Positions 17,535 through 61,893 of a stretch of 64,000 bases of DNA are shown piece after piece. Origin of the DNA: a virus; IMG/VR virus record IMGVR_UViG_3300034037_000036, positions 17,781 through 81,780 of that record. One strand, 5' to 3'. Position 1 is the first letter of the stretch. Each line of letters opens with the position of its first letter. A model generated the notes under the pieces. The model did not search any database and had not been told where the DNA came from. It saw only the letters and a list, made by a program, of their open reading frames with translations. The position numbers and the translations under genes were made by a program.

Positions 17535-18443
17535 ATGAGTAATAGAAAAAGATATAAAAGTTGCGTTGTATTATTGGAGAGAATATTAAATCCAAGTGAA
17601 GGCGCTGTAAAAAATTATTTTAAAGATGTCAGAGACCAAAAGACATTAACAAGGGAAGAAGAAATTGATCTAATAAGAAAATATAAAGAAGAGGGGGATA
17701 TTAAGGCAAGGGATACTGTAATAAATGCCAATTTAAGATTTGTTATTTCTGTTGCAAAAAGTTTGTCAATTTGGGATGTTGATATAATGGATTTAATAAA
17801 TGAAGGAAATATTGGTTTAATAAATGCAATAGAAACTTTTGATTATAAAACAGGTAATAAATTTATTTCTTATGCCGTATGGCATATAAGAAAGGAAATA
17901 ATGTCGTTTATAAGGTCTCATAGTTCTTCAATTAGAATACCAGAGAACAAATTATCCAATATTGCAAAAATGAAAAAAGTAATTAATAAACAAGAACAGA
18001 TTTTGGGCAGAAATGTTTATCCAGATGAAATTGATTTTAAAGATGAGATTGGTGAATATACTGATTTTGAAATTAGATTTTTAGAAAATGAAAATATTGC
18101 CAGACCAATTTCATATGATAAAAAAATAAAAAGTGAAGAAGATTCAAATGATTTATTATCTTTATTAAGTTCCAATGATAATTTTGAAAAAAACTTTATT
18201 ATAAAAAATGATTTAAAGTATATATTATTTAGATTATTGTGTAGATTAGATGAAACTACTAGGAAAATTATTTTATTGTATTTTGGTATAAATGATGAAA
18301 ACATAAGATATACTTATGAAGAAATAGCCCAAAAATGTAATTTAACAAAAAAAGAAGTTATCACAAAAAAGAATATGGGTATATATACATTAAAAAAATT
18401 CGCAAGAATGAAATATAAATCTATTAAAGAAATATATAGTTAA
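17535..18443 (+). CDS. sigma-70 family (RpoD/RpoS-like, no region 1.1) sigma factor
   Basis: YFKDV...LTREEEIDL...ARDTVINANLRFVISVAK...DLINEGNIGLINAIETFDYKTGNKFISYAVWHIRKEI; region 4 HTH (YTYEEIAQKCNLTKKEV). Confidence 0.92.
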   Translation: MSNRKRYKSCVVLLERILNPSEGAVKNYFKDVRDQKTLTREEEIDLIRKYKEEGDIKARDTVINANLRFVISVAKSLSIWDVDIMDLINEGNIGLINAIETFDYKTGNKFISYAVWHIRKEIMSFIRSHSSSIRIPENKLSNIAKMKKVINKQEQILGRNVYPDEIDFKDEIGEYTDFEIRFLENENIARPISYDKKIKSEEDSNDLLSLLSSNDNFEKNFIIKNDLKYILFRLLCRLDETTRKIILLYFGINDENIRYTYEEIAQKCNLTKKEVITKKNMGIYTLKKFARMKYKSIKEIYS

Positions 18444-43689: not shown

Positions 43690-43923
43690 TTATTCAACAT
43701 AATCACATTCAACATATGCAAGTCTATATTTTTTATTTTTCTTTTCGTCATAATGTATTTCATAAACATAATCAACAAAATAATCTTCACCAAGCGGATT
43801 TGAAGCTGTAGCGTTACAAAATTGTTTTACAATAGTATCATCATCACTAACTTTTGGGTTTAGTGTTGTGGTTGGTGTCCATTTTAAACCACCAATTTTA
43901 GAATAGAAAAATTTTTTGCTCAT
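43690..43923 (-). CDS. hypothetical protein
   Basis: 77-aa ORF overlapping the terminase stop. Confidence 0.65.
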   Translation of the reverse strand: MSKKFFYSKIGGLKWTPTTTLNPKVSDDDTIVKQFCNATASNPLGEDYFVDYVYEIHYDEKKNKKYRLAYVECDYVE

Positions 43924-46900
43924 TTTTTAAAGTTTTTTCCGAATAACCAAATATAATCATCATTTTGGTTATTGTTATTATTATTAATAAACCAATCAGT
44001 TTTGTTAGGTCTTTTATTATAAATATTCTGTTTAAGATCTTTTCCCGAAACCCATGCATTAATCATTGCTTTTGTCATATTTTTTGATTTTTCCAATTCT
44101 TTAAAAGACCTTTCAAGAACCCATAAAGCCATTGCCGAAGCCATTATTAAATCATCATTTTTTCCTGGCTTATGATCTGGTCTCCCCTTATTATTATATA
44201 CAAATGTTTTTAATTCATTTACTAATCTTATTGACCTTATTTTAAATTCATTATTTCTTAACATATATTCAAAATGTGAAATCATTTGAAGTCTAACACC
44301 AGAAGCATTAAATCCTGGTATTTTCCCATCTTTTGAATGTATATTTAATTTTTTATTTAATGAATTTCCAATACTTTTATCATAATATAATTTATCATAT
44401 CCTTTATTTAATAATTGTAATATTGTTGAAACACCAATACCACCAGCAATATCAATAACTGTAAATGCATTATATAGATTCCCATATTCTTCTATTATTT
44501 CTGCAAATTCATCTGGCAAACATTTTCCTTGATATTCCATAACTTGCTCCATCTCATCAGTATCAATAACAACAATTGTTGAATAATCTTTACCATCACC
44601 TCTTGCCACATCGCAATTATGTGTGGTTATATGATGACAAATATAAGTATGAGTATCACATTCAAAATTATATACAACACCAGAATATTTGGTGGTATCT
44701 ATGTTAGATATGGTAAATAATATATAATCATTATTTTCAATGAATTTTTTTTGAATGTTGTTTGGTTCTTTAATTAAATCTGCTGTAATAATATTATCAT
44801 TAACATTTATTTCTTTTAATATTTCATTTAATAATTTATAGCTATAATAGTTATCTAATTTTAGATAAATAATATTTAGGTTATGTATTGGATTATATAA
44901 TAATTGGGACATTTCTGAAAAAACTCCCAATGATAATAAAATATTTTGAATTGATTCCAATATCTCAATATCATAATGTACAAATAATATTTCTAACACT
45001 TCTTCATTAAAAATATTATATTCCCCACAGCCATCAAAAAATCCTTTTATTATATGTTTTTTAAAATTTAAATCAAGATGTTTTATTTCTTCCGATATTA
45101 TTTTATTATTTTCATTATAAAATACTTTATTGAAAAATTTATATAATATATCATCATTTATTTCTATTTTAATTGTATTACTACAAAAATCTATTTTTAA
45201 ATCTATATTTAATTTATTGGCAATATTATTTTTTATATTTTCTAATATACGTTTTTGTTTATCATGTAATACTATAGTAATATTATCATTTAAAGCCGTT
45301 CCTTTTGCAATAAACACACCAACAAACCACCAAAATATTTCATCTTTAAAAATATATTCTTTATCTTCGTCTATAAAATCTTTAATAATAGTATTAATAT
45401 CAATAATATTTTTTTTATATACATTTGGGAATTTTATTATATCACCAACATTTACATTTTCACATTTTACGTATTCAAAATTATCCCCACCATCTTTTGA
45501 AACCAATATCGGATGTTCTTTTGTGAATTTTGTTGTTCGTAAAGTGTGAGATAATTTTATTTCATATAAAGGTTCATCTTTTACCTCATATATTTGTTTA
45601 TTGATAATATTAACATATTCACCATTTTCATTTATCAGTTTAAAATTATTATCAATATCTTCAATGTTTTTTAATCCTTTATTTGTTAAAACTTTTTCTC
45701 CTGGTGGTAAACATCCCATTATATATTTATGATCGTTTTGTGGATATTTCCATATATAAAACTCATCATTTTCCCCACCAATCCATTCTGGTTCTTTAAC
45801 ATTGGTTTTTTCATGCATCATTATAACATCATCAGATATTACATTTCCACCAGAACCAATAAAAGAAACATCCAATTCTTGTGCAATCATTCTTTTGTTA
45901 CCATTTAAAGCATCACACATTTCAATATACCAATCAGATATTGGTTTCCACCCATCCTCAATTCTTTTGTTATAAGATTCAATTGTAAAGTCTTTTTCAT
46001 ATTCAACTATTTCATCAAACCCACCATCATCTAATGGTATTTTCTTTACCCATCTTAAATTTTTATTATATCTTGGATCTTCATACCATCTTAATTCAAT
46101 AACATTAAACCCGTTCTTTTTTTCTTTTGCTTGTATATATGTTTCATAATATAATGGGTCTTGACCATTTGGGGTTTGGTGTCCCAATATACCATTATAA
46201 ATTATTGAATGACACCAAAAATCTTCACTATGGGGTAGTGAAAAATCATATGTATAATTTTCAGATGATTTTATTGATATAATTTTATCCCAATATATAT
46301 TTTCAGATATTATAGATAAAATATCAAAATCAACATCAGTAAATTCAAATGGTTTTTCTTTTAATAGTTTATGTTTTAAAATTATTAAATCTTCTCTATT
46401 TATTTCGTTTTTGTATTTATTAATAATTTCAGACGCTTTTAATTTAGTTTCTGAATACTCAACACATCTATTTTTTATTGATACAACCCAATTCATTAAA
46501 TTAGGTATATTATCTTCAGAATGATAATCGTAATCAAAATTAAAATTTGATGGGAATACCAATCTGTTGAACAATGAATAAACTACATTAAGAAATTTAC
46601 CAGTAATTGATAATTTATAAGTTATTGAAGTATTTTCAAAATCATTATCAATAAATTTTGTTATTTTAGATAAAACACCAAGATTATTTAATAACATTGA
46701 AATTTGTCTTAGTAAAAATAAAGATTCTGATTCCAAATACAATTCACCATTTTTATATTTTGAACCAGTAAAAATACCTTCCAGAAGTCCAATTGTAGCT
46801 TTTTTTGAAAGAGACATCAATTTTTTTGGTAATACAATTTCGGAAACATCGCAATTTATCTCAATACCTATGGATTTTATTAACCTTAAAAAAGAATCCT

Positions 46901-48935
46901 CAGATATATTTATTCGTTTTAACGCATTTTTTACTTTTGATGATAATAGTTTCCTACCAATAGTATATTTGTTTGAAATTATATAACCAATAATAACAGA
47001 TATTTTATCATCAATGGATGTTATTTTATCACCATTTTTATAAGTTATATCATCAATAGTTAAGTCATCGTTCCCCCATATATTCATTCCATACTGTATA
47101 GCTACACGATCACCAACTCTTAAATTTTTTAATTTTGTCCATTTAAAACCTTCCCCATTTATATAAGTAAACAATTTATGGTTTAAAGAACCTTCAATCC
47201 AAGAATATTCTGTTAATATTTTTTTAGTTTCAACATATCCATTATTTTTAAATAAATTTCCTTTTCTTAATTTATCTTTTCCAAGAACATTGTATTCATC
47301 AATTTCATAACCACCAATTTTATCTTCATCTATAAAATCATATACATTTCTTAATCCCTTGTCAGTAAAAACAAACGTATCTTTTGTTACACATGATATT
47401 AATGTGGCTCTACCACCAGTATTGTGTGAAATAAAACCATTACTAATAAATGAATTTGTTTTAGGTACATGTAAATCATAAGTTACATCTTCATAAGTTT
47501 CTATTGATACTATTTTATCAAAATAATATGATATGTTGGGATATTGGGCAATTTCTGCAATAAAATCATTATATATCATTATATAATTGTTGCCAATTTT
47601 AGGAATGTAACCTAAATTGAGTAATAAAACACCTAAATCATTTAACACCTTACTATTGTTACAGAAATATTTTATATTATCATTTTTTCCTCTTGCAATT
47701 GGATATATAAAATTTTCAACTACTATCTTTGGAGAAGTCAATATTTTTCTTGGGAAAACATTGTCTTTATCAGGCATTATATCATTTACAAATGAAATAA
47801 AATCTTTACTATCAATAATTAAATTATCATTTTCATAATAAAAATTAACTAATAAAGTATTTAATGTTTTTTCTATTTTTTCAGAATCATATATAAATTC
47901 TTTTTTTATTGATATTTTATCTGAAACTTCGCCAAAAAAGAAAATTAAACCCAATATTCTACATAGTTGTTCATCTTGGGATAAATTTAACGGTAAATTT
48001 ATATCAAAATAATCACCAATGATTTCATCATTTTTTCCAAACATTTGTTGAGAAAATGTTATTAAAGGAGAATCACCCACCTTTAAATCACACATTTTTA
48101 CCCATTTATTTTCATCATCCCCACCAATTAATATTGGATGTTTCCAACTACCTTCAAGAGTTAATCCTAACCTTGTTTTTATTTTATATACTGTTGATTT
48201 TTCTGATACAAATGTTTTGGTAACATCTTCTAAATATCCTGAATAATTACATACTTTAAATTTGTTTTTTAATTCAGAAAATCCAACTGTTTCTTTTTCT
48301 TCCAGCAAATCATACAATTCAACCAAACCATTTTCAGTTAATATTAAAGTATCTTTTTTTAAACAACCTAACGACATTAATGCAGCACTAAATACTTCAA
48401 CACCATTATCAATAAAAGCCGCCTCATCCATAACAAGATAAGTTGGTGTATATCCCCTAAGCGCATCTTTTGAAGTTGCAACGGCTTTTGCACGGGAACC
48501 ATTTGGTAACAACAATTCTTTTTTTGATTCTCTAATAAAAATATTTAATGTGCTATTGATATAATATTCGTATCCCCATACCCATCTTGGCATTTGTGAT
48601 AAGAAGTCTTTAACTTTTGCAAGAAATTCTTGTGCCATATCCTGCTTATTTGCAAGAATAAGTATAGCTTCAGGACTATTTTTATCGGCAAAAGCAATTT
48701 TAACGGCAAGATATGCTGCTGTAACAGTAGATACACCCGCTTGTCTTGGTTTTGCAATGATATTTAATCTATGATCTTCATATGCTTTAATAATGTCTTT
48801 TTGTTTTGGAAATAATTTGAATTGAACAAATTTATCTTGTGTTTTATCAAATGTTTCTAAATACGTTTCAATTGCATATATTGGGTCAATTAAACATTTT
48901 GCATATTCTTTTATTATTTCATCTCTAGATAACAT
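43920..48935 (-). CDS. terL: terminase large subunit (gp17-like) with three inteins; about 584 aa after splicing
   Basis: KPRQAGVST (Walker A), LVMDEAAF (Walker B), IS|TPNG coupling motif, AQELDVSF, YIMG|CDVARGDGKDYS nuclease motif, NDDLIMA. Confidence 0.96.
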   Translation of the reverse strand: MLSRDEIIKEYAKCLIDPIYAIETYLETFDKTQDKFVQFKLFPKQKDIIKAYEDHRLNIIAKPRQAGVSTVTAAYLAVKIAFADKNSPEAILILANKQDMAQEFLAKVKDFLSQMPRWVWGYEYYINSTLNIFIRESKKELLLPNGSRAKAVATSKDALRGYTPTYLVMDEAAFIDNGVEVFSAALMSLGCLKKDTLILTENGLVELYDLLEEKETVGFSELKNKFKVCNYSGYLEDVTKTFVSEKSTVYKIKTRLGLTLEGSWKHPILIGGDDENKWVKMCDLKVGDSPLITFSQQMFGKNDEIIGDYFDINLPLNLSQDEQLCRILGLIFFFGEVSDKISIKKEFIYDSEKIEKTLNTLLVNFYYENDNLIIDSKDFISFVNDIMPDKDNVFPRKILTSPKIVVENFIYPIARGKNDNIKYFCNNSKVLNDLGVLLLNLGYIPKIGNNYIMIYNDFIAEIAQYPNISYYFDKIVSIETYEDVTYDLHVPKTNSFISNGFISHNTGGRATLISCVTKDTFVFTDKGLRNVYDFIDEDKIGGYEIDEYNVLGKDKLRKGNLFKNNGYVETKKILTEYSWIEGSLNHKLFTYINGEGFKWTKLKNLRVGDRVAIQYGMNIWGNDDLTIDDITYKNGDKITSIDDKISVIIGYIISNKYTIGRKLLSSKVKNALKRINISEDSFLRLIKSIGIEINCDVSEIVLPKKLMSLSKKATIGLLEGIFTGSKYKNGELYLESESLFLLRQISMLLNNLGVLSKITKFIDNDFENTSITYKLSITGKFLNVVYSLFNRLVFPSNFNFDYDYHSEDNIPNLMNWVVSIKNRCVEYSETKLKASEIINKYKNEINREDLIILKHKLLKEKPFEFTDVDFDILSIISENIYWDKIISIKSSENYTYDFSLPHSEDFWCHSIIYNGILGHQTPNGQDPLYYETYIQAKEKKNGFNVIELRWYEDPRYNKNLRWVKKIPLDDGGFDEIVEYEKDFTIESYNKRIEDGWKPISDWYIEMCDALNGNKRMIAQELDVSFIGSGGNVISDDVIMMHEKTNVKEPEWIGGENDEFYIWKYPQNDHKYIMGCLPPGEKVLTNKGLKNIEDIDNNFKLINENGEYVNIINKQIYEVKDEPLYEIKLSHTLRTTKFTKEHPILVSKDGGDNFEYVKCENVNVGDIIKFPNVYKKNIIDINTIIKDFIDEDKEYIFKDEIFWWFVGVFIAKGTALNDNITIVLHDKQKRILENIKNNIANKLNIDLKIDFCSNTIKIEINDDILYKFFNKVFYNENNKIISEEIKHLDLNFKKHIIKGFFDGCGEYNIFNEEVLEILFVHYDIEILESIQNILLSLGVFSEMSQLLYNPIHNLNIIYLKLDNYYSYKLLNEILKEINVNDNIITADLIKEPNNIQKKFIENNDYILFTISNIDTTKYSGVVYNFECDTHTYICHHITTHNCDVARGDGKDYSTIVVIDTDEMEQVMEYQGKCLPDEFAEIIEEYGNLYNAFTVIDIAGGIGVSTILQLLNKGYDKLYYDKSIGNSLNKKLNIHSKDGKIPGFNASGVRLQMISHFEYMLRNNEFKIRSIRLVNELKTFVYNNKGRPDHKPGKNDDLIMASAMALWVLERSFKELEKSKNMTKAMINAWVSGKDLKQNIYNKRPNKTDWFINNNNNNQNDDYIWLFGKNFKK
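44616..45713 (-). mobile_element. TerL intein 3 (366 aa)
   Basis: IMG|CLPPGEKVLTNKG ... VYNFECDTHTYICHHITTHN|CDVARG. Confidence 0.92.
46176..47393 (-). mobile_element. TerL intein 2 (406 aa), C-terminal Gln
   Basis: LIS|CVTKDTFVFTDKG ... YDFSLPHSEDFWCHSIIYNGILGHQ|TPNG. Confidence 0.9.
47421..48365 (-). mobile_element. TerL intein 1 (315 aa)
   Basis: SLG|CLKKDTLILTENG ... YDLHVPKTNSFISNGFISHN|T. Confidence 0.92.
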
Positions 48936-49095
48936 TATAGTAATTATTTATTTAATCAAAAAATGCTATTATTAAAACCACCATACATAATTAAATATAA
49001 TGATTGTGGCTTTAATGTTAATTTAAAATTTAATCTTATTGACTGTTTTAAATGTTAGTTAAAACAATATCATGATGATATTTTCATAAATATTT

Positions 49096-49145
49096 CGGCA
49101 AGGAAACCCATTGGTCAGCTCTGCTGCCGATGGGAGGAATTGCCG
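49096..49145 (+). repeat. IS200/IS605 left-end subterminal hairpin
   Basis: CGGCAA...CCCATTGG-TCAGC-TCT-GCTG-CCGATGGG...TTGCCG imperfect palindrome. Confidence 0.8.
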
Positions 49146-49196
49146 CTCCGTAATTAAATTATTTAACAAAATTAGTAATTATAAGAAAATTATTTG

Positions 49197-49204
49197 TATA
49201 TTTG
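49197..49204 (+). promoter_or_regulatory. Bacteroidota-type -7 promoter element driving tnpB (probably leaderless)
   Basis: TATATTTG followed by CATT and the GTG start at 49209. Confidence 0.55.
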
Positions 49205-49208
49205 CATT

Positions 49209-50273
49209 GTGAAACTTACATTGAAAATAAAACTTTTGCCTACCGATGAACAGGTTAACTTGCTTCTCGAAACGATGAAAGAGGCTAATGCTGTTTGTAA
49301 TGCTATTTCTGATATAGCTTGGCAAGAAAAGATTTTCAATAAGTTTAAGTTGCATCATCGAGTTTACCACGCTTACAAGGCTACGTTTCAACTTTCCTCT
49401 CAAATGCTTATAAGGCAAATAGCTAAAGTTGCTGATGCTTATAAGTTGGATAAGAAAACTAAACGCACTTTTAAACCACTTGGAAGTATTGCTTATGATA
49501 GCAGGATAATAACTTACAAGTCCAATAATGTGGTTTCTTTGTGGTGTATAGGTGGCAGGCAAAATATTGATTTTGTTTGCCATAATCCTGCTTATATTCC
49601 CTATATTAAAGGAGAGGCTGATTTGGTTTACAAAAAGGGTAAATTTTACCTTTATCAAACTGTTGATGTTCCTGAAAAAGATGTTAATGATGTTGAGGAA
49701 TTTATTGGCTGTGATTTTGGTTTGACTGACATAATTGTAACTTCTGATGGTGTTAAGTATTCTGCTGATGAGCTTAACGCATATCGTAAACATAGACAAA
49801 AGGTTCGGAGTTCTATTCAACGCAAAGGCACGAAAGGGGCCAAACGCCTCCTGAAACGGCTTTCTGGCAAAGAAAGAACTCATGCTTCCATAATTAATCA
49901 CACTATTGCAAAGTCTATTGTTCAATCTGCTAAAAAGCAAGGCAAGGGAATTGCCATTGAAGACCTTACTGGAATTAGATTTACAAGTAAAAAAAGAAAC
50001 AAGAAGTTTCGGACTAAACTTGGTAACTGGAATTTCTCTATGCTTCGTAAGTATATTGAATATAAGGCTTTGCTTAATGGTGTGAAATGTATTGTAGTTA
50101 ACCCTGCTTATACAAGTCAAACATGTAGTACATGTAAGCATATTGGAAGACGAACCAATAAAGTGTTTAAATGCACTAACACAAATTGCAAAGTAGATAT
50201 TATTGACGCAGATTTTAACGCCTCTCAAAATATCTCTTTGCTTGGGGTTAGAAAACTGTTCATGAAAATTTAA
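49209..50273 (+). CDS. tnpB: TnpB RNA-guided nuclease of the outer IS element; native C-terminus displaced by the IS607 insertion
   Basis: GTG start (MKLTLKIKLLPT). RuvC-I GCDFG, RuvC-II IEDL, zinc finger TSQTCSTC..FKCTNTNC, RuvC-III DADFNASQNI. The tail VRKLFMKI is read from IS607 left-end DNA; the native tail lies at 52330-52382. Confidence 0.92.
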   Translation: MKLTLKIKLLPTDEQVNLLLETMKEANAVCNAISDIAWQEKIFNKFKLHHRVYHAYKATFQLSSQMLIRQIAKVADAYKLDKKTKRTFKPLGSIAYDSRIITYKSNNVVSLWCIGGRQNIDFVCHNPAYIPYIKGEADLVYKKGKFYLYQTVDVPEKDVNDVEEFIGCDFGLTDIIVTSDGVKYSADELNAYRKHRQKVRSSIQRKGTKGAKRLLKRLSGKERTHASIINHTIAKSIVQSAKKQGKGIAIEDLTGIRFTSKKRNKKFRTKLGNWNFSMLRKYIEYKALLNGVKCIVVNPAYTSQTCSTCKHIGRRTNKVFKCTNTNCKVDIIDADFNASQNISLLGVRKLFMKI

Positions 50274-50342
50274 GTAAAAATTAGGAAAGTTAGATAAAAT
50301 TATGTAAATTTGTTGAACTTTTTAATTTCATTGTATATTTAT

Positions 50343-50561
50343 ATGAAAACAAAAATACAAAAATTAATAGATAAAATGGAAAATATACAATACAAGGTAG
50401 TTCGTGTAACTAAAGAAGAATTTGAATTGGAAGGTGGTGACATTTATCCTCATACATTCGAATTGGATGAAGACATTACTGTTGAGGAATTTCAGAAATT
50501 ACTTGATTCATCAAAACAATTGGTGTTGGAGCAGATAAAAAGAATTAACGAAGAAGAGTGA
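50343..50561 (+). CDS. 72-aa acidic protein carried inside IS607, coupled to tnpA
   Basis: ATG 50343 follows TATTTAT directly, and its TGA overlaps the GTG start of tnpA. Confidence 0.7.
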   Translation: MKTKIQKLIDKMENIQYKVVRVTKEEFELEGGDIYPHTFELDEDITVEEFQKLLDSSKQLVLEQIKRINEEE

Positions 50562-51187
50562 GCAACCTACTAAACATAAAAGAAGCATCAGAGTACCTTA
50601 ACGTACATCCAGATACACTTAGACGTTGGGATAAGGAAGGTAAACTCATCCCTGTTAAAACTGACGGTGGACATAGAAGGTATCAACAAGAAGTCCTTGA
50701 TGAATTCATTGGTATCCATCAAAGAGAGGTTAAGGAAGTTGTTCTTCCTGTAGCAATATATTCTCGTGTGAGTTCACATGAACAGAAAGCAAAAGGGGAC
50801 CTTGATAGACAATCGCAGAGATTGAGTGAATACTGTGCAAAGAAGAAGTTTGTTGTTGGAGAAATTATAAAGGATGTTGGAAGTGGGTTGTCAGATACGA
50901 GAAGTGGATTCTTAAAGTTAACGAAGCTTGTGATTGAGAAGAAGATTTCTAAAATTATAATTGAACACAAGGACAGGTTGACAAGATTTCAGTTTGGGTT
51001 TATTGAGCGAATGTTCAATAGTTATGGTGTTGAGATTGTATGTGTGGAGAAGGTTGATGTAAGTGAAGAGGAAGAATTGGTTAATGACATCATGATGCTT
51101 ATGGCAAGTTTCAGTGGTAAATTATATGGTAAAAGGAGTGTTAAGAGAAGAAAAAATAAAAAAAGAAGAATTAAAGTTGATAAGTAA
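50558..51187 (+). CDS. tnpA: IS607 transposase TnpA (MerR-type HTH + serine recombinase)
   Basis: EASEYLNVHPDTLRRWDKEGKL..KTDGGHRRY; AIYSRVSS (catalytic Ser); DVGSGL; IEHKDRLTRF; EELVNDIM.LMASFSGKLYG.RS. Confidence 0.96.
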   Translation: MSNLLNIKEASEYLNVHPDTLRRWDKEGKLIPVKTDGGHRRYQQEVLDEFIGIHQREVKEVVLPVAIYSRVSSHEQKAKGDLDRQSQRLSEYCAKKKFVVGEIIKDVGSGLSDTRSGFLKLTKLVIEKKISKIIIEHKDRLTRFQFGFIERMFNSYGVEIVCVEKVDVSEEEELVNDIMMLMASFSGKLYGKRSVKRRKNKKRRIKVDK

Positions 51188-51190
51188 ACA

Positions 51191-52315
51191 ATGAAAATAG
51201 TTCGTTCATCCAAATGCTCATTAAAATTCTCAACTGACAATAAATTAAGTCAGTTGAGAACCATTCTTTCCGAATATGGAAGGGTGGTTAATATCTTTAT
51301 TGATTATTTTTGGGAATTGGATGAACTTCCTTCTAAAGGAAAGTTGTTAAAACCAATTGTTGATATTCCAACTTATGGAGATGAACCAAGTTGGCTTTCA
51401 GCACGACTGAGAAAGGTTGCTGCAAGAGAAGCGATAGATATGCTTCTTGCAATGAAAAATAGATGGAAGGATAATCCAAAGAAATTAAAGAAGCCAGTTC
51501 ATAAAGGCAAGAAAATGAATGTGAGTTCCACAATTGCTGACCTAATTTCGGCACAAAACGCAACTGAATTTGATTGCTGGCTTCATCTTTCATCCATTGG
51601 TAATAAGATAATATTGGATTTACCAATTAAATTACACAAACAGTTTCATAAGTGGAATGAACTTGGAAATAGACTCAATTCTTATATTATAACTGATAAA
51701 TATGTACAGTTTTCTTTTGAGATTGAGACTGGTAAGAAAAGAGAAGGTAAGAAGGTTGTTGGGATTGACACAGGAATAAATGCACTTGCTTCTTCTTCTT
51801 CTGGCAAACAATATGGGACTGATATTAAGGAATTGATTGAGAGAGTTAAGAGATGTAAATATGGTTCAAAAGGTCAGCAACGGGCAAGGAGAGCATTAAA
51901 ACAAAGAATTGATGAAATTGCTATTGAGGTAATTAGTAGTGAAAACCCAGATTTAATTGTTATTGAGCAATTAAAGAACATGGGCCATAAAAGCAAGGTC
52001 AAACGCCTATTGACCAAAAATATTAGGCGTTCTATCGGTATTTGGAATTGGAGGTACTGGCTTATGAGGATTGAACAACAGTGTGAATTAAACCGTGTTT
52101 CGTTCAGAACTGTTTCCCCATATTACACCAGCCAAACATGCCCAAACTGTAACCATGTCGATAGGAAGAACCGAAACGGGATTGAGTTTAAGTGTCAGAG
52201 TTGTGGTTACACTGACAATGCAGATATAAACGCTGCCTTAAATATCATGAATCGGTTCATCTTGGGAAAATACGGTTCCCAATACAAACAAGAGAACATA
52301 CGTAGTTTTACGTAA
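51191..52315 (+). CDS. tnpB: IS607 TnpB RNA-guided nuclease
   Basis: RuvC-I GIDTG, RuvC-II VIEQL, zinc finger TSQTCPNC..FKCQSCG, RuvC-III NADINAALNI; ends 14 bp from the element's right end. Confidence 0.92.
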   Translation: MKIVRSSKCSLKFSTDNKLSQLRTILSEYGRVVNIFIDYFWELDELPSKGKLLKPIVDIPTYGDEPSWLSARLRKVAAREAIDMLLAMKNRWKDNPKKLKKPVHKGKKMNVSSTIADLISAQNATEFDCWLHLSSIGNKIILDLPIKLHKQFHKWNELGNRLNSYIITDKYVQFSFEIETGKKREGKKVVGIDTGINALASSSSGKQYGTDIKELIERVKRCKYGSKGQQRARRALKQRIDEIAIEVISSENPDLIVIEQLKNMGHKSKVKRLLTKNIRRSIGIWNWRYWLMRIEQQCELNRVSFRTVSPYYTSQTCPNCNHVDRKNRNGIEFKCQSCGYTDNADINAALNIMNRFILGKYGSQYKQENIRSFT

Positions 52316-52329
52316 GTTTGATTGAACGG

Positions 52330-52382
52330 TATCCGTAAACATGCCTGAAAAATCGACTATGTATTGCTCTTTGCATTCGTAG
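52330..52382 (+). pseudogene. displaced 3' end of the outer tnpB (VSVNMPEKSTMYCSLHS-stop)
   Basis: In frame with ...SLLG once 50248-52329 is removed; the SVNxPE tail is typical of TnpB C-termini. Confidence 0.8.
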
Positions 52383-52390
52383 TTAGGTTT

Positions 52391-52429
52391 AAAGCCCATC
52401 CCATCGCTTTGCGTGGGTGGGTAGTTTAC
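52391..52429 (+). repeat. IS200/IS605 right-end hairpin and TTAC cleavage site
   Basis: AAAG-CCCATCCCATCGC-TTT-GCGTGGGTGGG-TAGTTTAC. Confidence 0.85.
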
Positions 52430-52450
52430 AGGGAAGAAAACTTTGTGAAA

Positions 52451-52487
52451 TGTGAATCCCATTTATTTAATAAGTGGGGCATTCACA
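52451..52487. terminator. stem-loop, probable terminator for the minus-strand run
   Basis: TGTGAAT-CCCA...TGGGGC-ATTCACA imperfect inverted repeat 4 nt from the stop at 52492. Confidence 0.5.
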
Positions 52488-52491
52488 GGTT

Positions 52492-52947
52492 TTAATTTAA
52501 TGATTTGATTGAAGAAATAATATAAGTTAATTTATTTTTTGGGACACCTATTTTTTCTGCAAAATATACAATAGCCTCTGCTTTTTCTTGTGGTGTATTT
52601 AACCTTTCGACAATGGTTTTCATTGTGTTGCTATCAAGTTTGTCCAATAATTTTTTAACATCGTTTTTAACATTCTCATCAACCTCTTCTTTAATATGAT
52701 ACTTTTTCTTAATAGATTTAACACATGATTCATATTTATCTTTATCATCTCTACCAACACTTTTGGTACATATTGCCCAGGGATTTATTTTTTTAGCCTC
52801 ATCAATAACCTTTATTGTTACATTATCATCATCACCAACCTTTCTAATAACATTTTCAAGATCTTCTTTATTCACAACCACCACAGCTTCTTCAATTAGT
52901 TTTTTAATATCTTTTTTCATGATACATAATTTAAGGTTATTATTCAT
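52492..52947 (-). CDS. hypothetical protein, candidate internal head protein (probable start ATG 52920)
   Basis: MKKDIKKLIEE leader; internal VIDEAKKINPWAICTKSVG...KYESCVKSIKK. Confidence 0.7.
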   Translation of the reverse strand: MNNNLKLCIMKKDIKKLIEEAVVVVNKEDLENVIRKVGDDDNVTIKVIDEAKKINPWAICTKSVGRDDKDKYESCVKSIKKKYHIKEEVDENVKNDVKKLLDKLDSNTMKTIVERLNTPQEKAEAIVYFAEKIGVPKNKLTYIISSIKSLN

Positions 52948-53366
52948 TCCTTTTCCTCAAAACTTACGAATTTATAATTATCCATTAAATCTCTCATAAA
53001 TAATTTTTCTTCAACATCAACAATACTATCACCAAATTTAAATACCAATCTGTTTTCTGGATAAGTTTCATATTCATCAATATTTTCCCACCCCAAAGCT
53101 ATAACACCATCTATACTATCCCACATTGAAAACAGTGAACTGTTTTGAACTGTTTCAATTACAACATCTGTTTTAATGGTTATTACTCCAGAAATAAAAT
53201 CTTTTGAGGGAGGTTTTGGTAAACCAGATGCTGGTAACATATCCCAATCAGTACCATCTATATCTTCAATATTTTTAGAAAAAATAAATTCATAAATAGT
53301 TAACCCCTCCCAATCTTTACCTACAGTATTGATAAATACAAGTTTTAAATCTTGATTTTTTTTCAT
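52944..53366 (-). CDS. hypothetical protein
   Basis: 140-aa ORF overlapping both neighbours. Confidence 0.75.
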   Translation of the reverse strand: MKKNQDLKLVFINTVGKDWEGLTIYEFIFSKNIEDIDGTDWDMLPASGLPKPPSKDFISGVITIKTDVVIETVQNSSLFSMWDSIDGVIALGWENIDEYETYPENRLVFKFGDSIVDVEEKLFMRDLMDNYKFVSFEEKE

Positions 53367-61772: not shown

Positions 61773-61849
61773 AATTTAGTCCACCAATGAATGGTGTATG
61801 TATCTTCTTTAATAAAATTTTTATTAAACTTTTGTTTATAACCGTATGG

Positions 61850-61893
61850 GTGAACTACCAACCCATCAGCTTTGCTGTGGGTGGGTAGTTCAC
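61850..61893. mobile_element. orphan IS200/IS605-end palindrome (PATE/MITE-like)
   Basis: GTGAACTACC-AACCCATCAGC-TTT-GCTGTGGGTG-GGTAGTTCAC; the 3' arm closely matches the right end at 52391-52429. Confidence 0.7.

Follow-up and report, generated by a model that had tools for sequence, protein, structure and literature searches.

We analysed a stretch of viral DNA of 64,000 nucleotides (nt), the window, which corresponds to positions 17,781 to 81,780 of the IMG/VR virus record IMGVR_UViG_3300034037_000036 and in which one transposon encoding an RNA-guided nuclease of the TnpB type lies inside another. All positions are those of the window, and features are on the + strand unless another strand is given. 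Four + strand open reading frames (ORFs) stand between a terminase gene with an intein (43920-48935, - strand) and the next phage gene (52492-52947, - strand). The first is the tnpB gene of an outer element of the IS200/IS605 type; the other three, in the order orfX, tnpA and tnpB, make up an IS607-family element of 2082 bp (50248-52329). Pfam and PHROG assignments concur on the identities of the four ORFs. The GC content of the phage is 24%, against 34-36% in both nested elements. The contig, of viral origin, is 86.6 kb long with a CheckV completeness of about 23%, and its source is therefore probably a large phage.

The outer ORF as a whole encodes a TnpB of 354-359 amino acids (aa; 49194/49209-50273), the true start being probably the GTG at 49209. 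It reads ...NISLLG and then runs into VRKLFMKI-stop, a foreign tail (50248-50273) read off the IS607 element's left end; here the coordinates and sequence given by a first-pass annotation of this DNA were right. To place this tail we gathered 110 relatives of the outer TnpB in viral contigs and fetched 80 loci, of which 75 hold full-length copies (50-81% identity). Every one of these 75 uninterrupted homologs continues past LLG with an xSVNxPEKSxMYCSLHS-like tail, such as ISVNNPERCSMYSCSMHY, QTVNSAEKSTMYCSLHS... or AAINTPERQIMYCSLHS. The foreign tail is absent from all homologs, and close relatives with RKLFMKI-like tails in place of SVNxPE, which would have told against a nested insertion, number 0 of 75. 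The missing tail is found again beyond the insert. The sequence reads CTTGGGG/TTAGAAAA across the left junction and TTGAACGG/TATCCGTAAAC across the right one; deletion of 50248-52329 yields ...LLGVSVNMPEKSTMYCSLHS-stop, which fits the C-terminus of the outer family, and restores the right end of an element of 1260 bp. That an IS607 element had been inserted in the 3' end of an IS200/IS605-type tnpB, and that its removal repairs the reading frame up to the stop, is thus upheld, with a correction to the length of the restored protein: the start at GTG 49209 gives 358 aa, the probable value, instead of 363. The native part of the gene still in place has 346 codons (49209-50247; Pfam PF07282, 5.5e-19), and the displaced part consists of the last 17 codons and the stop (VSVNMPEKSTMYCSLHS-stop, 52330-52383). 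The target in the outer element reads CTTG-G-GG-T-ATCC. The order of events is plain: the outer element came first, IS607 second. What remains of the outer TnpB retains, as had been noticed, the three acidic residues of the RuvC site, D (GCDFG), E (IEDL) and D (DADFN), aligned to Cas12f and TnpB structures, as well as a CxxC...CxxxxC zinc finger; its matches in PDB (Cas12f, TnpB) cover the RuvC and TNB domains.

The borders of the inserted element are fixed by its relatives. Fourteen siblings of its recombinase (64-70% aa identity) were fetched, with the right end aligned in 12. Sibling DNA aligns with the window from GGTTA... on the left (14 siblings) up to ...AACGG on the right (12 siblings), and the flanks beyond have nothing in common but the G that precedes the left GG and the T that follows the right one. 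Left flank and core together read NGGG in 15/15 IS607 copies, and the right end reads AACGG in 13/13. The same limits, GG/TTAG... and ...GAAC/GG, are found in the window, in the 14 siblings and in a Logan contig, L102, which matches the window from GGGTTAGAAAA onward bar two mismatches and has a different left flank. Because GGT is common to both junctions, the border could be shifted by at most 2 nt leftward or 1 nt rightward. The shared GG(T) recurs across all 13-14 siblings, far beyond chance, in keeping with the crossover at GG that the first-pass annotation had proposed. The inner element has neither terminal inverted repeats nor a target-site duplication, and its removal leaves a single GG. 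Insertions of this kind are on record for the family, at a GG or (G)GG target, with GG at both junctions and no duplication (PMC6188088). Candidates for the short direct repeats near the ends to which TnpA binds in this family are TTAGRWAA, three copies of which lie in the left end, and TTGAAC and GTTCAT, each present at the two ends; in DNA so rich in A and T, such motifs may arise by chance.

The ends of the outer element are likewise delimited by homologs and, as first read, intact. On the left, about 40 homologs share TTCAT(AA) (49083-49089), the presumed target or target-adjacent motif (TAM) of this family, and the sequence further left is unrelated. On the right the element finishes ...GGGTAGTTTAC at 52429, beyond which the homolog flanks diverge and are unrelated. 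The element sits 3' of its short conserved motif with no inverted repeats and no duplication, the pattern of IS200/IS605. Subterminal imperfect hairpins, expected of IS200/IS605 elements, are present at 49107-49134 (CCCATTGG...CCGATGGG) and 52394-52422, both with compensatory changes in the homolog alignment; the first belongs to a left end (49090-49208) that also comprises the region upstream of tnpB. In the aligned copies this left end extends only about 120 nt from the tnpB start, which leaves no room for a tnpA, and the family therefore belongs to the TnpB-only (IS1341-like) branch of IS200/IS605. No tnpA is found inside any of roughly 45 aligned copies, and none of the Y1 type on the 86.6-kb contig. 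Among cellular sequences, those nearest to the outer TnpB come mostly from Bacteroidota bins and Galbibacter isolates. Y1_Tnp scores above the Pfam cut-off in 3/5 bacterial genomes carrying the family (mostly Bacteroidota). Two of the outer-family loci, L082 and L066, have truncated or frameshifted genes.

The insertion falls at a point that matters for the guide RNA of the outer nuclease. An alignment of 46 right ends brings out an omegaRNA-like core of 102 nt (52328-52429), with compensatory changes in each of its four helices: stem A, GGTAT/ATGCC (52328-32 with 52341-45); a pseudoknot between the loop of stem A, GTAAAC, and the last six bases, GTTTAC (52335-40 with 52424-29), the two sides of which change jointly in five copies to ATAAAC/GTTTAT; stem B, AAATC/GGTTT (52350-54 with 52386-90); and the right-end hairpin (52394-400 with 52416-22). 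The helices were defined by hand, RNAalifold on a 230-nt MAFFT alignment having given a poor consensus owing to gaps, and were tested against shuffles and against partners slid out of register. Paired cells amount to 92.6%, against 80.5% in shuffles and 30-49% with slid partners; 16/23 pairs changed on both sides, and 0/500 shuffles reach the observed values. In the covariation scan of the last 230 nt, the 130 nt that precede the insertion yielded no conserved helix. Codon usage tells the same story from the protein side. At codons for conserved residues, the entropy of the third position stands at 1.12-1.15 bits over the last 50 codons ahead of the insertion, no lower than the average of the gene, and falls only downstream of the insertion point, to 0.60 in the 17 displaced codons, against 0.9-1.15 over the rest of the gene, so that constraint at the RNA level starts at the insertion site. 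A scaffold predicted in this way overlaps the 3' end of tnpB and ends at the right end of the element, as omegaRNAs do. The 5' arm of stem A begins with the recombination GG, and the GG at the right end of IS607 rebuilds the stem. A scan of 48500-53000 against Rfam (E<=1) found no omegaRNA, RAGATH-18 or other family. We also considered that the GTAAAC/GTTTAC pairing might serve a Y1 TnpA, at the level of DNA, in recognising its cleavage site. The guide of IS608 immediately precedes the foot of the hairpin on the 5' side; here the partner is about 85 nt away, inside a stem-loop, and an RNA pseudoknot is the likelier explanation.

Taken together, these data make it highly probable that the locus records a recent insertion of IS607 at the border between tnpB and the omegaRNA core of a TnpB-only element, the RNA core being left whole. 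The course of events was most probably as follows. The TnpB-only element of IS1341-like type was resident in the intergenic space beside the terminase gene when IS607, with its serine recombinase, integrated. The crossover used the GG within CTTGG-GG-TATCC, which is one of the (G)GGG sites that IS607 transposases prefer. It fell just where the structured residues of the outer TnpB end (...NISLLG) and stem A, the first of the predicted omegaRNA core, begins. The outer protein loses no more than a tail of 17 aa with RNA-constrained codons; this tail varies in length among homologs, and its conservation is explained by the overlapping RNA. The outer RNA core stays whole, with its first stem rebuilt by the terminal GG of IS607, albeit 2 kb from its gene and behind the inner tnpB. 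We read the insertion, on comparative grounds, as uncoupling an intact nuclease core from an intact RNA core, now 2 kb apart, with neither of them broken. Function of the outer system then depends on transcription through IS607, and its omegaRNA could still be produced if transcripts of the inner tnpB read through; the stretch from the inner tnpB stop to the outer right end has no terminator-like site, which is weak evidence.

The first-pass annotation had gone the other way: in its account the insert splits the outer omegaRNA, so that the outer TnpB is probably disarmed. The data do not support this, the covarying RNA structure lying entirely downstream of the insertion, at 52328-52429. A version of it deserves discussion, according to which the functional omegaRNA reaches upstream of the insertion and is cut by the 2082 bp. 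Native TnpB omegaRNAs often exceed the core, that of ISDra2 measuring 231 nt (PMC13639567); they normally come from the tnpB transcript, which now ends in foreign DNA; and RNAfold of the window sequence draws a long hairpin just upstream of the insertion. That hairpin, however, is out of register in homologs (manual alignment check), with no covarying helix there, and third-position variability upstream is at least the gene average, whereas four out of four covarying helices lie downstream. Moreover, in ISDra2 the deletion of positions -231 to -117 leaves activity unchanged or higher (review, PMC13639567), which makes a core of about 100 nt plausible. We therefore hold a split and disarmed omegaRNA to be unlikely, while taking it seriously.

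How recent and how real the nesting is was approached through public metagenomes. Contigs of four public runs (X1, X2, X3 and X9) were aligned to 48800-52700. In X3, from a hot spring, one contig spans 49932-50247 and 52331-52430, separated by a single letter, with just three other mismatches; its right flank beyond is a different one, which makes it an un-nested sibling, about 99% identical, of the outer element. The crude-oil runs X2 and X9, the latter an RNA library, hold similar un-nested outer variants. In turn, X1, X2 and X9 contain pieces of IS607 that show 0-2 mismatches and begin at 50245, preceded by other flanks. Un-nested, near-identical siblings of both elements thus exist, and the nesting event is therefore recent. 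Proposals made from the DNA alone, that GG-bounded empty alleles and IS607 siblings with the same ends should be found, are borne out by the 99% identical contig and by the 14 siblings. The empty phage site, 49087 joined to 52430, is absent from the contigs of the four runs. As for distribution, near-identical pieces of both elements are present in hot-spring, hydrothermal-vent, crude-oil and oil-field metagenomes. The near-identical outer sibling of run X2 has ten extra bases (TATTTTCCGA) after 49179 that are missing from the window copy; most homologs have at 49179 a palindrome, TTTTCTGATATAAGAAAA, of which the window copy keeps the right half only. This may represent the loss of a regulatory site upstream of the outer tnpB. 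In run X1, from a hydrothermal vent, the IS607 on one contig is identical but for 558 bp missing from within tnpB (51684-52241), a defective derivative.

Several points weigh against a recent insertion that left the RNA core whole. A 60-nt probe of the nested junction found it in no listed public run, and no contig of the four runs bridges 50247/50248, so that the nested junction is documented by the source assembly alone; a Joint Genome Institute (JGI) contig of the source sample, 3300034038, has the same nested arrangement and is not independent. None of the outer-family loci fetched, 80 viral and 76 genomic, holds a second nested copy, and nesting is not seen among the 14 IS607 siblings either. 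On the side of RNA, it is conservation, and not the mapping of transcript ends, that sets the 5' limit of the functional omegaRNA; function could have required a 5' extension that is not conserved, or an internal promoter in the 3' end of tnpB, since lost; and both omegaRNAs remain predictions at the RNA level.

The inner TnpB may also act on DNA of the outer element. The published IS607 model places the predicted guide of the inner TnpB (TATCCGTAAACATGCC..., 52330-52349) just 3' of the IS607 right end. Joined to the left flank TTGGGG, TATCCGTAAACATGCC... is the uninterrupted outer allele, and the inner TnpB, guided by TATCCGTAAAC... with a TAM of the GGGG/TGGG type, would be expected to cleave outer copies that lack the insert. 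For the outer TnpB, the predicted guide (AGGGAAGAAAACTTTG..., 52430-52449) would be the phage DNA just 3' of the outer right end, AGGGAAGAAAAC..., given that homolog flanks diverge exactly after 52429. The junction of an excised IS607 circle would read ...TTGAACGGTTAGAAAA... A scenario combining these elements can be drawn, in which the inner TnpB, with the first 16-20 nt of the outer omegaRNA region as guide and a GGGG TAM, cuts un-nested outer copies, IS607 is copied in by repair as a gene drive on another transposon, and a single read-through transcript of the inner tnpB supplies both omegaRNAs in tandem, the outer nuclease staying armed; as a whole this is improbable, and we mention it as speculation. 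Tolerance of an insertion inside a dispensable element is a simpler explanation of where IS607 lies. Scarcity of GGG in DNA of 24% GC, driving IS607 towards the GC-richer element, was considered as well; GGG-type sites are just 1.2-2.6 times denser there, a minor factor at most.

Two further explanations fare much worse. The nesting might be an assembly chimera joining reads from separate copies of two elements that are both repeated in metagenomes, an idea to which the lack of the nested junction in any listed run lends some weight. Misjoins, however, occur across shared repeats, yet the two junctions share just GGT; both fall exactly at the IS607 ends defined by the 14 siblings; once the insert is removed, frame and RNA stem are both whole again to the base; and the JGI contig of the same sample, not an independent witness, shows the same arrangement. 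A chimera is very improbable indeed. Just as hard to believe is that the composite of outer ends and IS607 is an established mobile unit spreading as one piece, since intact-looking left and right ends and Y1 transposases in genomes with the outer family are set against the missing second copy at the 80 viral and 76 genomic loci or in the 14 siblings, the lack of a Y1 TnpA on the contig, and the drop in efficiency of single-strand excision in IS608 as element length rises. In principle, a Y1 TnpA acting in trans might mobilise the composite.

The IS607 element deserves a description of its own. Ahead of tnpA stands orfX (50343-50561), which codes for an acidic protein of 72 aa and whose stop overlaps the tnpA start (GTGA). 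It is kept in 14/14 siblings at 50-58% aa identity, with an overlapping ATGA, and the overlap suggests that it is translationally coupled to tnpA. No Pfam or PHROG family matched orfX; public data hold 75 homolog clusters, all unnamed. The tnpA gene (50558-51187) encodes a serine recombinase with an N-terminal helix-turn-helix (HTH) of the MerR type (MerR/HTH_17, residues 4-51), a C-terminal catalytic domain (Resolvase, residues 65-204) and a YSRVSS motif (Pfam MerR 1.3e-13, Resolvase 2.1e-20; PHROG 6620, transposase, 7.9e-54). The inner tnpB (51191-52315) specifies 374 aa with the RuvC residues D (GIDTG), E (IEQL) and D (NADINAA) and a zinc finger CPNC...CQSC (Pfam PF07282, 5e-19); its PDB matches are TnpB and Cas12f, and its siblings are 64-67% identical. 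The right end (52230-52329), presumed to hold the omegaRNA scaffold of the inner TnpB, ends ...TTGAACGG; it is conserved to ...AACGG in 12 siblings and has no Rfam match.

Siblings with the same two ends differ exactly between the tnpA stop and the tnpB start, a gap of 3 bp in the window. Four sibling copies with different flanks have there a superfamily 2 (SF2) helicase (ResIII/DEAD, 720-878 aa) and an ORF of 147-164 aa; elsewhere the gap contains a 72-aa ORF, or, in one copy, an M24 metallopeptidase, and in L095 a second IS607-like tnpA (40% identity) with its tnpB. The contents of these gaps lie at L087:4638-7304, L090:4638-7426, L091:4638-7274, L096:4638-7406, L088:4644-5441 and L095:4635-7077. 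To judge from these comparisons, the gap appears to serve as a slot for cargo, or else as a hot spot where further elements nest.

Other features of the window recall the two elements. A motif upstream of the outer tnpB, TTTGTATATTTGCAT (49190-49206), recurs upstream of a phage gene (56437-56452), and a related motif, TTGTATATTTAT (50332-50342), adjoins the start codon of orfX; the nested elements may carry promoters resembling the phage's own. At 61848-61893, a near-perfect hairpin of 46 nt (GTGAACTACCAACCCATCAGC-TTT-GCTGTGGGTGGGTAGTTCAC) resembles the right-end hairpin of the outer element and its GGGTAGTT(T/C)AC tail, and is followed by TTTTCAATTAACGGT, reminiscent of the sequence ...TTAACGGT at the right end of IS607. 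The hairpin may represent a terminator or what is left of an element end. A blastn search against GenBank phages returned no match.

Each of the two elements fits a described family, and nested insertion sequences are common. No description of an IS607 nested in a TnpB-only element was found in the literature at the level of titles and abstracts, full texts not being covered, which is a matter of documentation and not of new principle. The nest is an ordinary one and a clean natural example, precise to the base. It maps, for this outer TnpB family, where the protein ends and where the guide-RNA core starts, an RNA of about 100 nt with a covarying pseudoknot between a loop and the 3' end, and such a boundary is useful for mining compact editors akin to TnpB or Cas12f from phages. 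It further offers a prediction, open to testing, that one RNA-guided transposon targets another. The nest may be less interesting than the IS607 subfamily, given the conserved extra 72-aa gene of the latter and its slot for exchangeable cargo between tnpA and tnpB.

It remains to set the locus beside known systems. In the CboIStron of Clostridium botulinum, the TGGG target doubles as the TAM of TnpB, the scaffold ends ...UCGG and the guide lies 3' of the right end (bioRxiv 10.1101/2023.11.20.567912). Like this system (TnpA_S/TnpB) and the IS607 of Helicobacter pylori, the inner element couples a serine recombinase having an N-terminal HTH of the MerR type with a tnpB that follows on the same strand, and it lacks terminal inverted repeats and target duplication, with GG at the junctions, GGG on the left and a right end in ...CGG. 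It differs from both by the conserved, apparently translationally coupled 72-aa gene ahead of tnpA, by having no group I intron and no detected RAGATH-18 or other Rfam RNA, by the T after the right-hand GG in all siblings, and, in those siblings, by the variable cargo slot between tnpA and tnpB. The outer element resembles the TnpB-only (IS1341-type) IS200/IS605 elements and the ISDra2 model: a conserved 5-nt motif adjoins its left end, subterminal imperfect hairpins mark both ends, tnpB fills the element, and the predicted RNA scaffold overlaps the 3' end of tnpB and runs to the right end, with a pseudoknot beside the guide. Unlike ISDra2, its family has no tnpA in roughly 45 aligned copies, and its scaffold core is about 100 nt; in sequence, the outer TnpB is nearer some Cas12f structures (9nzq, 8e-22) than ISDra2 TnpB (2e-5). 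Finally, as in nested insertion sequences in general, where one element finds a 'safe haven' in another, the interrupted partner can be reconstructed to the base. The difference here is that both partners encode RNA-guided nucleases, and that the predicted guide of the inner one spells the intact allele of the outer.

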